Made by a program: the position numbers and the translations under genes. A model generated the notes under the pieces. The model was not told the origin of the DNA. It saw only the letters and a list, made by a program, of their open reading frames with translations, and did not search any database. From positions 71,641 to 135,640 of the forward strand of contig JAPPNP010000051.1 in assembly GCA_028873795.1 (NCBI GenBank): 64,000 nucleotides of DNA. Direction: 5' to 3'. The stretch comes from Chloroflexota bacterium (GTDB lineage Bacteria; Chloroflexota; UBA11872). Positions 27,079 to 37,247 of this stretch are shown in pieces (position 1 is the stretch's first letter; each line of letters begins with the position of its first letter).

Positions 27079-27324
27079 GTGGCCAGTATCACCGTGCGTA
27101 ACCTCGACGACGGACTGAAGCGGCGTCTACGAATCCGCGCCGCTGAGAACGGAAGGTCCATGGAGCAGGAGGCCAGGGACATCCTGCGGACGGCTCTGGG
27201 CGAGGCCTCGGCAACGAGCACGGACCTTGGCAGTTCCATTCGCGCCCGATTCGCCCCGCTTGGCGGTGTCGAACTGGAATTGCCACCCCGCGAACCGATC
27301 CGCAACCCACCGTCGCTGGACTGA
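27079..27324 (+). CDS. vapB: RHH antitoxin (FitA/VapB-like)
   Basis: MASITVRNLDDGLKRRLRIRAAENGRSMEQEARDIL pattern; GTG start; precedes PIN gene by 9 nt. Confidence 0.7.
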   Translation: MASITVRNLDDGLKRRLRIRAAENGRSMEQEARDILRTALGEASATSTDLGSSIRARFAPLGGVELELPPREPIRNPPSLD

Positions 27325-27333
27325 GGCGGCGTC

Positions 27334-27759
27334 GTGATTGTCCTCGACACAAACGTCGTCTCCGAGTTCATGCGCCCAAATCCCGCCGATCGCGTTGTTG
27401 ACTGGATGTCGCGGCAGTTCGCCGCGTTGCTCTATCTCTCGACCATCAGCGAAGCCGAATTGCGCTATGGCATTGAGATTCTCCCGCTCGGCAAACGTCG
27501 TGAGCGTCTGGGCTCAGAGGTTGAAGGGATGCTGCGCGAAGATTTCGCGGGACGCATTTTGCCGTTCGATCAGGCTGCCGCGCAGGCGTACGCCGTTATC
27601 GCTGCCACGCGCAGGGCTACAGGGCGGCCAATCAATCACCCCGACTGCCAGATTGCGGCTATTGCTCGCGCCGCCGGGGCGGCCGTCGCCACGCGAGACA
27701 TCGGTGCATTCCAAGACTGCGGCGTCGAGGTGATCGACCCCTGGGCCACCGAAAGCTGA
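27334..27759 (+). CDS. vapC: PIN-domain toxin (VapC/FitB-like)
   Basis: MIVLDTNVVSE start, PIN acidic residues. Confidence 0.75.
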   Translation: MIVLDTNVVSEFMRPNPADRVVDWMSRQFAALLYLSTISEAELRYGIEILPLGKRRERLGSEVEGMLREDFAGRILPFDQAAAQAYAVIAATRRATGRPINHPDCQIAAIARAAGAAVATRDIGAFQDCGVEVIDPWATES

Positions 27760-29955: not shown

Positions 29956-30243
29956 TAGCGTTCTCCCCAAGGACTCGTCATCGATTCATCGGTCGCAGGT
30001 GAGGATAGCGGGCTTGCCCTGCGCCGCGCGCCAGAGCGACGGCACGCGAGCTTCGGAGTCGATCGCACCCTCCACGCGGCGCTCCCTTGACTAATGCCAC
30101 CGAATACGCCGACGCACGGTGCAATCGGCGTGGATCGCACGCCGGAATCCCCTTATCGAGACACCATTTCTGTTGTACCCTCACGCCCGGATTGGTCGCA
30201 GGCGAAAACAGCGCCGACCAGGGTGCTATCAAGGGGTTTGAAA

Positions 30244-32388: not shown

Positions 32389-32949
32389 CTATTGCTCCAC
32401 CCGGCACGTGATGACATCGACGCCGTGGTACTTGCGATGGTGGACCGAGGACGCGAAGTGCCGGAGAAGCCTGGTCGACAGTTGCTCCGCGTCGTCGAAT
32501 CCGGCGTGGTCGCTCACCAGAGCGAGTTGATCTTCGATATTGCCGTCGATGTCTTCACGCGAGTAAACCACCAGCTCGACCTCGGCGGCGTCGCCGTCCG
32601 CGTGCACCGAGGCCACCAGCCGGCGCCGGTGGTCGGCCTCAGCGTCGCCGCCCTGCTCCAATAGCGTGAGCACGGCTTCCTCAACCGCCAGGTTGAGCCG
32701 GGTTTGCGCCGACTCACTCCACTTGTTTTGCGACGCAAAGCGATTCAAGAACGCGCCGATGTCCGCCAGCGCCGCATGGGACAAATCTGCCTGCATCTTT
32801 CGAGGCCAGAGTCCACGAAACTCCGTGACCGCTGTCATCACGATCGCGGTTACCGCGCCGAGGATCACCGTGTTCCCGACCAGCTCACTCCAAATGCCGT
32901 CACTCAACTGGCCGATGCTTCCCGCCGACAGGCCGAGCACCAGCGACAC
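32389..32949 (-). CDS. Permease C-terminal part (two TM helices plus ~130-aa cytoplasmic domain); continues the upstream fragment in the same frame
   Basis: Hydrophobic N-terminus continues the TM domain of 32977-34101 across an in-frame TAG. Confidence 0.45.
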   Translation of the reverse strand: MSLVLGLSAGSIGQLSDGIWSELVGNTVILGAVTAIVMTAVTEFRGLWPRKMQADLSHAALADIGAFLNRFASQNKWSESAQTRLNLAVEEAVLTLLEQGGDAEADHRRRLVASVHADGDAAEVELVVYSREDIDGNIEDQLALVSDHAGFDDAEQLSTRLLRHFASSVHHRKYHGVDVITCRVEQ

Positions 32950-32976
32950 ACCGGTGATGACCGATTTTCGATTGTT

Positions 32977-34101
32977 CTACGGACCCGTAAACACCCATTT
33001 CGCACCCTCGATGAAGAGCAGCCCGAAGACCATGATGTAGACCGCGCTGACGACCGAGTTTGGCGTGGCGGCGAGAGCGGCAATCACCTTCCCGAACGGC
33101 GCGATCAGGAGCGTGAGCAAACCGAGGTAGATCCCGACGGACCTGGCGGATATGCCGGTGAATCCGATGTAGACGGCGGTGGACGACCAGGGCGCCGAGA
33201 CTGGCAACGTGGCCAGAAGCCCGGTGAGCAACGTCGTCCCCCCATAGACGTTCAAGCCGCTTTGGATCGTCCTGAAGTCCACGGCACGCGGCTCGCGAAA
33301 CGAGGCGCGCTTGATGACCGAGAGATCACCGACAACCTTCAGGAACGCCGTGAGCTTCACAATCAAGAATGCCGGTAACATCGACCAGAATCTAACCCCG
33401 AAGTCGAATTCCCACTGGGGCCATTCGAGGTCTCCAAAGCTCAGCCAGGAGGCCTCCTCCACCGGCCCACCGTCGTACAGTCCCATGGGGATTGCCACGG
33501 CCAGTCCCGCCGCAACAGCAATTGGCAGCGTCCACACACGCCGCGCGGCCGAAGCCTGCACCGCGCCCCACAGTCCGGCGCCGAGCGCGAAAACACCAGG
33601 AATGACAACGAGCGCCGACCGATCCTGGGATTGAGCGATCGTCCGGTCCACGATGAATGGGACCGCGGACACGGCCACGAGCATGATGATGATCCCGCTA
33701 ACCGTGGGGGTGAATATTCTCCGCAGCGACGAGAGGCGCGAGACTAGGACGAACTGTAGAAGTGTCGACGCTATGACCAGGGTTGCCAGCAGGCCCGGAC
33801 CGCCTTCTGCGAGCGCCAACACCGACATCGCCAGCAGCGGAACATTCAGGTTCGTGACCACCAGTCCCCCCGAGCCCAGATGGCGAAACGGGAAGGCGTG
33901 AAGAATCATGCTCAAGCCGGAGATTGCCAGCCCGGTGAACGTGACCCAGGCCAGGTAGCTATCGGATTCGCCCGACGCTCGGACGACGAACGTCGTGAGC
34001 AGGATGACGCTGATCGAGTTTGGGACGAATATAAGGAGAGCCGCGCCAAGCGCCTGCCGCAGGGGAGGCTTCTCGGCCGGCTCGTATCGCATACTGTTCA
34101 T
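32977..34101 (-). CDS. Polytopic solute permease (NCS2/AzgA- or SulP-like), N-terminal fragment ending at in-frame TAG
   Basis: About 11 predicted TM segments; NVYGGTTLLTGLLATLP region reminiscent of nucleobase permeases. Confidence 0.5.
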   Translation of the reverse strand: MNSMRYEPAEKPPLRQALGAALLIFVPNSISVILLTTFVVRASGESDSYLAWVTFTGLAISGLSMILHAFPFRHLGSGGLVVTNLNVPLLAMSVLALAEGGPGLLATLVIASTLLQFVLVSRLSSLRRIFTPTVSGIIIMLVAVSAVPFIVDRTIAQSQDRSALVVIPGVFALGAGLWGAVQASAARRVWTLPIAVAAGLAVAIPMGLYDGGPVEEASWLSFGDLEWPQWEFDFGVRFWSMLPAFLIVKLTAFLKVVGDLSVIKRASFREPRAVDFRTIQSGLNVYGGTTLLTGLLATLPVSAPWSSTAVYIGFTGISARSVGIYLGLLTLLIAPFGKVIAALAATPNSVVSAVYIMVFGLLFIEGAKWVFTGP

Positions 34102-34236
34102 CGAGCTCGATGCGTCAAGGTTGATGCAACGGCCACAGAGCTATGCAACGCTTCCTGAACTCCGACGCATGGTATCAATATTCGCGCGACGTCCACGCAC
34201 CGATGCGGTCAGAATAGCTTCCAAGTACAGGCTCGC

Positions 34237-34509
34237 CTAGTGCATGTGTGGGGGGCGCTGGCGGCGCTTGGCGTACGTCGTATTCGTTACGCTGCGACGA
34301 CGATACGCTTCCCTACTGGCCCGATCTCTATGCACACTCGAACCCAGTCCGAGCGCTTCCTCAACAAACATGTACAATATCTTGAGCGGAATAAGAACAA
34401 TAATCCGCGCAATTGCTCTAAGTGACTTCACAGCAAATCTACCGGATCGTCGCGCAACGCTGACTTCTTCTGGCCCTTTATTCAAGGCAAGCTTCGCGTC
34501 ATACTTCAT
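34237..34509 (-). CDS. Hypothetical small protein inside low-GC segment
   Basis: ORF only; low-GC (~45-50%) context 34150-34620; no recognisable motif. Confidence 0.2.
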   Translation of the reverse strand: MKYDAKLALNKGPEEVSVARRSGRFAVKSLRAIARIIVLIPLKILYMFVEEALGLGSSVHRDRASREAYRRRSVTNTTYAKRRQRPPHMH

Positions 34510-34760
34510 GACTCTTCCTCCAGATCAATGGTATATCTGCCATTCCTAACTCGCGTCACTATATCACCAAGCAATCGCTGCACGATTGGAACGCGCAATG
34601 ACGGTTTCCTAGGGAAGCGGACGGGAGCGAGCTTGTCGGAGTGCTGGCCCCCCGGGGCGGCAAACGACCATCCGGCCAAACCTGATCGGAGCCTTTGCCG
34701 CGCCTGCGCCAGGAGATCGAGTCGATCGGATGGCGGGACGCCATCGATGCCGTGACGGAT

Positions 34761-35930
34761 CTAGCTGAAATAGTCCTTCATGGCACTCGCGGCAGCCTCG
34801 ATGTCCGAGGCATCGTTGAAGGCGTGGAAGGAAAAGCGGACGGCGGTGTAGCCGTCTGCAGCCCGGCACAGAATGCGGTGGGTCTTGATGCAGTGCTCGG
34901 CCAGCGGCATCCCGGAAACTCCCGCGAGCCCGACCGTGAAAATCCCCGAACGGGCCGCGTCTTGCTCGGGAGTCTTGATTTGGGCGCCGGGCACGTCACC
35001 GAAGATTCGGCGAGCATCCGCCGCAAGCGCCGCGCAGCGCTGCTGGATGGCCTCAAGACCCAGGTCGTGCACCAGCTGAATCGACGAGCGCCAGGCGGCG
35101 TACAGCGCATAGGGCCGCGCGCCGAACTCGTAGCGCTCCGCCGTCGGATGCAGGCGAAAGCTGCCCGGCGGAAACTCTGCCTCCGAAACCGCCCCACCGC
35201 CACTGCCCGATGGGTTCAGCCGCTGTTGGATTTCGCGCCGGACATACATGGCGCCCACGCCGTAGGGCCCCATGCTCCACTTGAAGGCGGGGAACGCCAT
35301 GACGTCGCAATCAAGCTGGCGCACATCGGTGGGACGCGCGGCGAACGACTGCGCCGCGTCCACCACCGTCACGATCCCACGCTCGCGGGCCAGCGCGGAG
35401 ACCTCGTCGACCGGCAGCACGATGCCGCGCTCGGTGGTGACGTGGCTCAGGCAGATTGCCCGCGTGTTGGCCGTCAGCGCCGCTTCCAGGTCTCGCAGGA
35501 ACGCGTCGTCGTCGCCGTCGACTTCGATCGCGACGAGATCCAGACCCAGGCGATCCCGCAGCGTGAGCCAGGGCAGATAGCCGCTGGGATGCTCGGCGTT
35601 GGTGAGGATCACGCGGTCGCCCTGCTGCAAGTCGAGTGCGGCGGCGACCCACGAGATGGACTCCGACACGGCCCGGATCAAGGCGATCTCGTCGGCGTCA
35701 GCTCCGATAAGCGCGGCGATTTCGCCGCGAAGGGCTTGCAACTCCGCCGTGTAGACCTGGTAAAGCTCCGGATTCGTGGTCGTCATCACCGCTTCACGGT
35801 CGTAGAGGGCCTGTTGCAGATCGAGCGTGGCCTGAGGCGTGGGCGCCACGCCGCCGGAGTTCAGGCAGCGGTAGTGGCGCAGCGCCGGCAGCGTCCCGCG
35901 CAGCTCGACGAAGTCGCTGATGTCAGCCAT
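34761..35930 (-). CDS. Class-V aminotransferase (cysteine desulfurase/isopenicillin-N epimerase-like), PLP-dependent
   Basis: Class-V fold pattern incl. SHVTTERG, DAAQSF, FKWSMGPYG (PLP-Lys region). Confidence 0.7.
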   Translation of the reverse strand: MADISDFVELRGTLPALRHYRCLNSGGVAPTPQATLDLQQALYDREAVMTTTNPELYQVYTAELQALRGEIAALIGADADEIALIRAVSESISWVAAALDLQQGDRVILTNAEHPSGYLPWLTLRDRLGLDLVAIEVDGDDDAFLRDLEAALTANTRAICLSHVTTERGIVLPVDEVSALARERGIVTVVDAAQSFAARPTDVRQLDCDVMAFPAFKWSMGPYGVGAMYVRREIQQRLNPSGSGGGAVSEAEFPPGSFRLHPTAERYEFGARPYALYAAWRSSIQLVHDLGLEAIQQRCAALAADARRIFGDVPGAQIKTPEQDAARSGIFTVGLAGVSGMPLAEHCIKTHRILCRAADGYTAVRFSFHAFNDASDIEAAASAMKDYFS

Positions 35931-36220: not shown

Positions 36221-36973
36221 CTAGCAGCCGACGCCGAGGGTGAAGATGCAGATCACGCCCCCGATGATCTCGTCGAGGCTGCCCAGGGCGTTCAGGCCAA
36301 GTTCGGCCAAGGCCAATAGCGCTTCCGCCGTGACGACTCCGGCCTCGAGCAGTTCGAGAACGTCGGCGTTGCCGGACCGCTGCACAAGATCCGCGATTCC
36401 GGGGCCGTTGGGGTCGGCGCCGGCGTCCAGCAGCAGTTGCGCGACCGCTAGGTCGCCGCGATCCACGGCCAGGGCCAAGACCGAAAGGTCCTCCTCCGCT
36501 AGCGTGTTGGGATCGGCGCCGGCCTCCAGGAGCATATGCACCATCTCAGCGTCGCCGTGGAGCACAGCCGAGGCCAGGACGGCGATGCCGGATTCGCCCG
36601 TGGCGTTCGGGTCGGCGCCGGCGTCCAGGAGCATCGCCAGAATCCCAGTCTCGCCACCGCCGGCAGCCACGGCCCCAACAGGCTCGCCATAGGGCGTGAG
36701 CGCGTTGGGGTCGGCGCCCGCTTCGAGGAGCACTCGGACCAGCACCGAGTCGCCGAGCTCGACGGCGACCGGCAGGGCCGAACGGCCGTCGTCGTCCCGG
36801 TAGCTGGGGTCGGCGCCAGCCCAGAGCGCAATCTCGGTGAGCTCGGTCCGGCGTTCAGAAACGTGCTCGAGCAGCAGCGCATCGTTGCTAAGGACTAGCC
36901 TCAACACGTAGACCAGCGCCACGAGCGCGACGACTGTGAGGGCGACGACGGCAGTCCGATTTCGAGCTGTCAC
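36221..36973 (-). CDS. Membrane-anchored ankyrin-repeat protein (5-6 ANK repeats)
   Basis: N-terminal TM helix (AVVALTVVALVALVYVL) then repeats with LLEAGADPN / LLDAGADPN consensus. Confidence 0.75.
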   Translation of the reverse strand: MTARNRTAVVALTVVALVALVYVLRLVLSNDALLLEHVSERRTELTEIALWAGADPSYRDDDGRSALPVAVELGDSVLVRVLLEAGADPNALTPYGEPVGAVAAGGGETGILAMLLDAGADPNATGESGIAVLASAVLHGDAEMVHMLLEAGADPNTLAEEDLSVLALAVDRGDLAVAQLLLDAGADPNGPGIADLVQRSGNADVLELLEAGVVTAEALLALAELGLNALGSLDEIIGGVICIFTLGVGC

Positions 36974-37247
36974 GGTTTCCGTTCGCCTAGTCCGATTCCA
37001 CGTATCTCTCGACTAAGACTCCGGACTGCACGGCCCGACGCGTGGCGGCTATTCCCCCGACGTCCACGTCTTGCGCGGCGAGTCCGACAGGGGCACCGCC
37101 AGTTCGAATCGTCACGTCGCCCGGACGCGAACCGTCTACGCGGCCACTAGACGCCAGGCCGACGGCGCCAATTCCGCCGGGACACCGAGCCACTCGATTC
37201 GCCGACGCTGGGACGCCCGGGCCCATGGACATGGGCCCTTCGCTCGA

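Follow-up and report, generated by a model that had tools for sequence, protein, structure and literature searches.

Results and Discussion

A putative permease gene interrupted by one in-frame stop codon

In the window, namely the whole stretch of 64,000 nt analyzed here, the minus strand of positions 32389-34101 encodes a putative membrane permease whose reading frame is interrupted by a premature in-frame TAG at 32977-32979. When this region was translated, 570 codons with one internal stop were obtained, and the product reads AKWVFTGP, then the stop, and then NNRKSVITGVSLVLGLSAGS; across the junction, the minus strand reads AAA TGG GTG TTT ACG GGT CCG TAG AAC AAT CGA AAA TCG GTC ATC ACC GGT GTG. 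The premature TAG occupies codon 375 of the 570-codon frame, which corresponds to codon 372 in the numbering of the orthologues, and the natural terminator of the gene is found at 32389-32391 (minus strand), where the codon is again TAG. In the list of open reading frames, the gene thus appears as two entries in one frame, 32977-34101 (374 aa) and 32389-32949 (186 aa), both on the minus strand. The upstream fragment starts from the ATG at 34101-34099, contains the transmembrane (TM) helices TM1-TM12, and ends at the premature TAG; the in-frame remainder (32389-32976, minus strand) contains the rest of the TM12-TM13 loop, TM13, TM14, and a C-terminal soluble domain. As the start of the downstream frame, the GTG at 32949 is taken in our list, and the GTG at 32940 (minus strand), which gives 183 aa, is taken in the NCBI annotation. 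The original prediction had described the two frames as lying in the same frame on either side of this junction, and all of these details, including the coordinates, are correct when compared with the sequence, the list of reading frames, and the translation.

It had also been proposed that the coding sequence continues across the TAG. Indeed, the match to the Pfam family Xan_ur_permease (PF00860) spans the stop at 375, covering residues 30-392 of the product with X placed at the stop, and the matches to TIGR03173 and TIGR00801 also cross the stop, reaching residue 425; alignments with full-length orthologues likewise run through this position. When all frames of the window were scanned, furthermore, the permease TAG was the only stop that had at least 100 codons with the coding signature (GC1/GC2/GC3) on each side and was not a gene boundary. 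The interruption of one continuous gene by this TAG is far beyond chance.

Surroundings of the permease gene

Immediately upstream of the gene, a stretch of about 75 nt (34102-34177, minus strand), with a blastn block boundary at 34177, is strongly conserved in the alignment with L001, L007, and L010, relatives of 95-98% identity, and the sequence farther upstream is unrelated. This promoter-proximal stretch could be a leader or a regulatory element; we found neither an Rfam match nor, in a simple scan, a sigma-70-like promoter in it. At 34099-34101 (minus strand), which is three codons ahead of the ATG called as the start of the orthologues (34092), the codon is ATG in the window and GTG in the relatives. 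The protein thereby begins with MNSMRYEP in the window and with MRYEP in the orthologue calls, and the upstream codon at 34099-34101 may be the true start in this permease family.

We also noticed that the spacer between the permease gene and the gene for a class-V aminotransferase is a variable spot (34178-34786 in the window, 9768-9916 in L001, and 5116-9915 in L002). In the window, it is 609 nt of unique sequence with a lower GC content (0.56) and a 90-aa frame without a family match (34237-34509, minus strand), and the C-terminus of the aminotransferase differs from that in the relatives. The spacer is about 150 nt in L001, L007, and L010. Contigs L002-L006 from JGI have a 4.8-kb insert at this spot, with a GC content of 0.53 and three frames of 292, 742-769, and 292 aa; the middle frame has a weak match to nSTAND_NTPase5 (24.5 bits, below the cut-off), the other two have no match, and PADLOC gave no match for the frames of this insert in L002-L006.

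A few kilobases upstream of the permease, two genes for ankyrin-repeat proteins are located at 36221-38639 (minus strand). Eukaryote-like repeat proteins such as ankyrin-repeat proteins have been reported to be enriched in sponge symbionts (PMC8163846), and these genes agree with a sponge as the probable source of the scaffold. On the plus strand at 27160-27759, a 54-aa frame that is 100% identical in L001 stands ahead of a gene for a PIN-domain protein of 141 aa, and the two are likely to form a toxin-antitoxin pair of the VapBC type.

Identity and fold of the permease

The product with X at the stop matches PF00860 with 72.8 bits against the gathering cut-off of 27. In NCBIfam, the matches stay below the cut-offs: 84.6 versus 291.8 bits for TIGR00801 (ncs2) and 37.3 versus 40 bits for NCS2_1 (NF037981), and the match to the xanthine-permease (pbuX) model is far below its curated cut-off. 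With a profile built from 57 orthologues, matches to PDB chains of UapA, UraA, and SLC23A1 were obtained. For the structure, we used an AF2 model of P0002, an orthologue with 98% identity; the model is of moderate confidence (pLDDT 68.6) and has 14 TM helices. In Foldseek, it was matched to UraA, UapA, and SVCT1 with a probability of 1.0 and a TM-score of up to 0.76 on the target (5xls, 5i6c, 8omz, and 7yty at probability 1.0), namely to the UraA-type fold of 14 TM helices in a 7+7 inverted repeat. In this model, TM12 spans residues 345-368, the loop 369-373, TM13 374-396, and TM14 402-425, so that the interrupted site (residue 372) is predicted to lie within the short loop that connects TM12 with TM13 and is positively charged. 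The loop sequence GP-L-NNRKS is aligned with the FTRRNR loop of UapA in the profile alignment.

The permease thus shares with the NCS2/NAT transporters (UraA, UapA, and SVCT1; PF00860) the Pfam match, the profile match, the 14-helix fold, and the TM12-TM13 loop. Unlike those transporters, it scores below the NCBIfam cut-offs, has an altered NAT signature, and carries an extra C-terminal domain of about 140 aa resembling RsbW. The NAT signature in TM10, [Q/E/P]-N-x-G-x4-T-[R/K/G], is not found in the permease; in a single HMM alignment, Q408-N409-N410-G411 of UapA stand opposite S-T-A-V, and the trailing T-G alone is kept. Given S-T-A-V at the signature positions, a nucleobase is not necessarily the substrate. 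We therefore describe the gene product, as modeled, as a divergent permease of the predicted NCS2/UraA fold with a C-terminal RsbW-like domain. The original prediction of a polytopic permease of about 570 aa with a C-terminal soluble domain is consistent with this description, in that the family match, the helix map of the AF2 model, and the fold comparison all agree.

The C-terminal domain (32392-32817, minus strand; 142 aa) would be cytoplasmic, and its modeled fold is a GHKL alpha/beta sandwich of the RsbW/SpoIIAB/UsfX kind, with RsbW/SpoIIAB as the closest. By sequence, the match of this domain to Pfam HATPase_c_2 (PF13581) is sub-threshold (18.7 versus 27.4 bits); the same family matches the C-terminal domains of relatives at E<=1 in 12 of 21 cases, the best being 1.6e-5, and a comparison of the domain with the PDB by sequence alone gave nothing significant. 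The relationship to RsbW is visible at the level of the predicted fold only. When read by eye, the conserved stretch EEAVLTLL seems to lack the Asn of the N-box.

Complete proteins with this domain are about 570-600 aa and have it at the end, and hundreds of representatives preserve this pairing of a UraA-fold transporter and an RsbW-like domain. A search of the literature on such a fusion found nothing. A similar arrangement is known in the SulP/SLC26 transporters with the STAS domain: the two share the 7+7 inverted-repeat membrane fold (chains of SLC26, BicA, and SulT were also recovered by Foldseek), and both carry a cytoplasmic C-terminal domain derived from a partner-switching (anti-sigma) module. 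By this analogy, the fusion would be a counterpart of SulP/SLC26-STAS.

A leucine codon at the interrupted position in close relatives

In a search against a collection of 5.8 billion proteins, 507 matches were obtained, and the best 120, mostly from metagenome-assembled genomes (MAGs) of Chloroflexota, were listed. These include more than 100 full orthologues from Chloroflexota that are intact, 566-580 aa long, up to 98% identical, and aligned from end to end, and none of the 120 matches listed has a stop at the TAG site. As for the amino acid that belongs at the interrupted position, which the original prediction had left to an alignment of orthologues, Leu, Met, Ile, or Val is found there: the column is L/M/I/V in the alignment of 25 proteins (24 orthologues together with the window protein and its stop), with Leu in every aligned relative of at least 92% identity and L, M, I, or V farther out.

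The DNA was compared with that of L001-L007 (from ENA, JGI, and Logan), of L010 and L020 (GTDB genomes), and of more distant genomes. All nine of the close relatives (L001-L007, L010, and L020) have TTG at the site, with identical or near-identical flanks; the 36 nt on the 3' side of the codon in L001-L007 are the same as in the window, and so are the 36 nt on the 5' side in L002-L007, L001 differing there at three bases. TTG is present, within DNA that otherwise matches, in all relatives whose protein is at least 95% identical. The distant genomes have ATG, ATA, ATT, GTT, GTC, or TTG. A stop at this site is found in none of the orthologues, neither in the 24 aligned proteins nor in the 16 DNA loci. 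Since the close relatives have TTG within matching flanks, the stop is a single T-to-A transversion of the Leu codon TTG, assigned by parsimony to the window lineage; the altered base is that at 32978, with A on the coding strand in the window and T in the relatives.

We then counted by parsimony against five relatives the changes that belong to the window lineage and found nine: four synonymous, four missense (I23V, T26S, I29V, and V168F), and TTG to TAG. By the same comparison, no window-specific substitution was found in the 589 nt on the 3' side of the stop. The dN/dS ratio between the window and L002 is about 0.15 in both halves of the gene (0.16 in the downstream half), and the C-terminal half has 0 nonsynonymous and 20 synonymous differences from L007. 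These substitution patterns suggest that purifying selection acted on the permease gene until very recently. The gene has no further lesions and the downstream part no window-specific changes, and the nonsense event would therefore be very recent.

A real mutation or an assembly artefact

The same stop was found in three assemblies. The scaffold ROBB21-1_SAMN13943215_METAG-scaffold_287 in ENA (137,490 nt) is 100% identical to the window over 21,125 nt and has the TAG. A Logan contig of SRR10996925, which also carries the TAG, is 100% identical to the window over 4,665 nt. The 374-aa product is exactly MDE2991487.1 (OXU21_10535) in NCBI, from a 158,424-nt contig of a Chloroflexota MAG, and the downstream piece is registered as MDE2991486.1 (OXU21_10530; 183 aa), both halves being annotated as hypothetical proteins. 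Because three assemblies carry the same allele, a real mutation is more probable than an artefact of assembly.

Alternatively, the organism might have TTG, and the A at 32978 on the coding strand might have come from the reads, by a systematic error, or from polishing, or it might be a minority allele that the assemblers picked. Such an error would be consistent with a difference of a single base from all relatives within otherwise identical flanks, and the three assemblies may stem from one read set or sample. The exact protein with the stop repaired to Leu, moreover, was absent from the protein collection, so that this strain has no independent sighting. However, the assemblies (137,490, 158,424, and 4,665 nt) were made separately and carry the same stop. 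If ROBB21 denotes Robbins et al. 2021, which we take from the label, the data would be Illumina short reads, in which substitution errors of the consensus are rare; that study of sponge microbiomes used Illumina 2x151 reads (PMC8163846). Also, no frameshift or other defect was found in the 16 genes compared with L001: when 16 proteins of L001, a 3.3-Mb contig, were compared with the window by tblastn over 22 kb, the permease alone had a stop inside the coding region. A sequencing or consensus error is hence considered rather unlikely, and of the possibilities named in the original prediction, the sequencing error has lost ground, given the same base in three assemblies.

In the course of this comparison, a second candidate pseudogene was considered and rejected. 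A TGA at 29986-29988 (minus strand), where L001 has TGC, lies in a 40-codon 5' extension of an M19 dipeptidase gene that is called in L001 only. An ATG preceded by the Shine-Dalgarno motif GGGGAG follows this TGA, and the 340-aa peptidase in L008 (the identical ENA scaffold) is called from that ATG. The extension is probably not coding and would be an artefact of the gene call in L001.

Possible recoding or readthrough of the TAG

The pyrrolysine (Pyl) UAG genes mtmB, mtbB, and mttB likewise have one in-frame TAG and are intact elsewhere, and the TAG here might be decoded too, so that the whole 570-aa protein is made, be it with pyrrolysine, through a suppressor tRNA, or by stimulated readthrough. 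The reading frame on the 3' side of the TAG is perfectly intact, as programmed recoding would have it, and UAG followed by A, the context present here, terminates translation less strongly than the best contexts in E. coli. These points are, however, set against the use of TAG as the commonest terminator in the window, where it also ends the permease gene itself: the 42 reading frames of at least 120 aa with the coding GC1/GC2/GC3 signature are terminated by TAG in 22 cases, by TGA in 17, and by TAA in 3. Among called genes, those terminated with TAG are 8 of 16 in L008 and 6 of 16 in L001. The TAG is present in no orthologue, furthermore, and the residue at the site lies in a loop, varies among aliphatic amino acids, and has ordinary codons.

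The resemblance to Pyl genes is superficial. The TAG of a Pyl gene is shared by its orthologues, and pylTSBCD is present in the same genome; the permease TAG differs in that it occurs in one assembly lineage only, its counterpart in the orthologues is TTG, and no other stop codon terminates as many genes here as TAG. To our knowledge, Pyl-containing proteins are the methylamine methyltransferases and a few others, and NCS2 permeases are not among them. No tRNA gene was found in the 64-kb window or in 14 related loci, and as for a stimulatory RNA structure, the 126 nt from the stop onward fold no better than shuffled sequences (MFE z +0.67). Rfam detected nothing relevant around the permease gene; the sole match, to ar7 in the downstream intergenic region, was sub-threshold (E 0.12) and was dismissed as a candidate for a riboswitch or another known RNA. 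With TAG used as an ordinary terminator, no conservation of the TAG, and neither a tRNA gene in the window and related loci nor a structure on the 3' side, recoding is unsupported; pyrrolysine, reassignment of the code, and programmed readthrough were all discarded on these grounds, and the probability that the TAG is decoded in a programmed manner appears extremely low. Recent pseudogenisation, recoding, and a sequencing error had been put forward together in the original prediction; TTG in the orthologues and the single lesion argue for the first, and the common use of TAG as a terminator together with its lack of conservation argues against recoding.

It is extremely improbable, too, that the stop is partially suppressed, as by a suppressor tRNA that is specific to the strain and encoded elsewhere, so that some full-length permease is still produced in the population, or that it frees the RsbW-like domain as a regulatory change, and none of our observations points to either.

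Probable consequence of the premature stop

Taken together, the permease TAG is most probably real in the DNA and represents an ordinary, very recent nonsense (loss-of-function) allele or a nascent pseudogene. A T-to-A transversion would have turned TTG (Leu) into TAG in one sponge-associated population of Chloroflexota. Translation would then end after 374 residues and leave a 12-helix fragment without TM13, TM14, and the RsbW-like domain; if translation stops at the TAG, this domain would not be made as part of the permease. TM13 and TM14 are helices of the gate domain, and in the structures of UapA and UraA, it is through this domain that the dimer is formed. With these helices and the C-terminal domain missing, we infer a loss of function, and the 374-aa fragment is most likely non-functional, judging from topology only.

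If the gene were instead functionally split, two products would be made and would work together or separately, namely the membrane fragment of 374 aa and a downstream product with its own initiation, the latter starting from the GTG at 32949, the GTG at 32940, or an internal ATG that gives the soluble domain alone. In-frame GTG codons are indeed present 27 and 36 nt past the stop, and gene callers, including that of NCBI, annotate two coding sequences. Neither GTG is preceded by a Shine-Dalgarno-like motif, however, and a start at either would clip the first residues of TM13. None of the 120 matches listed is split at the TAG, and the complete proteins with the C-terminal domain (about 570-600 aa) have it as their terminal part. 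Two genuine genes, with orthologues ending exactly at the TAG, had been named in the original prediction as the finding that would speak against an interrupted gene, and no such orthologue is among the 120 matches listed. It is hence very unlikely that the two pieces work as a split gene.

We thus return to the nonsense allele, which has the features of ordinary nonsense pseudogenes in bacteria: the same kind of single-base change, intact orthologues, a sole lesion, and two adjacent coding sequences in the annotation. Nothing sets the permease allele apart from this class.

Conclusions

In terms of annotation, MDE2991487.1 and MDE2991486.1 should be regarded as the two halves of one disrupted permease gene. 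Screens for stop-codon recoding can also use the allele as a clean negative control, and such cases are decided by two checks: whether the site in close relatives holds a sense codon that differs from the stop by a single substitution, and how frequently the stop is used as a terminator nearby. The phenomenon itself is minor, a further case of a recent nonsense allele in a symbiont genome assembled from a metagenome, and the family of UraA-fold permeases fused with the RsbW-like domain, to which the disrupted gene belongs, may merit a separate study.
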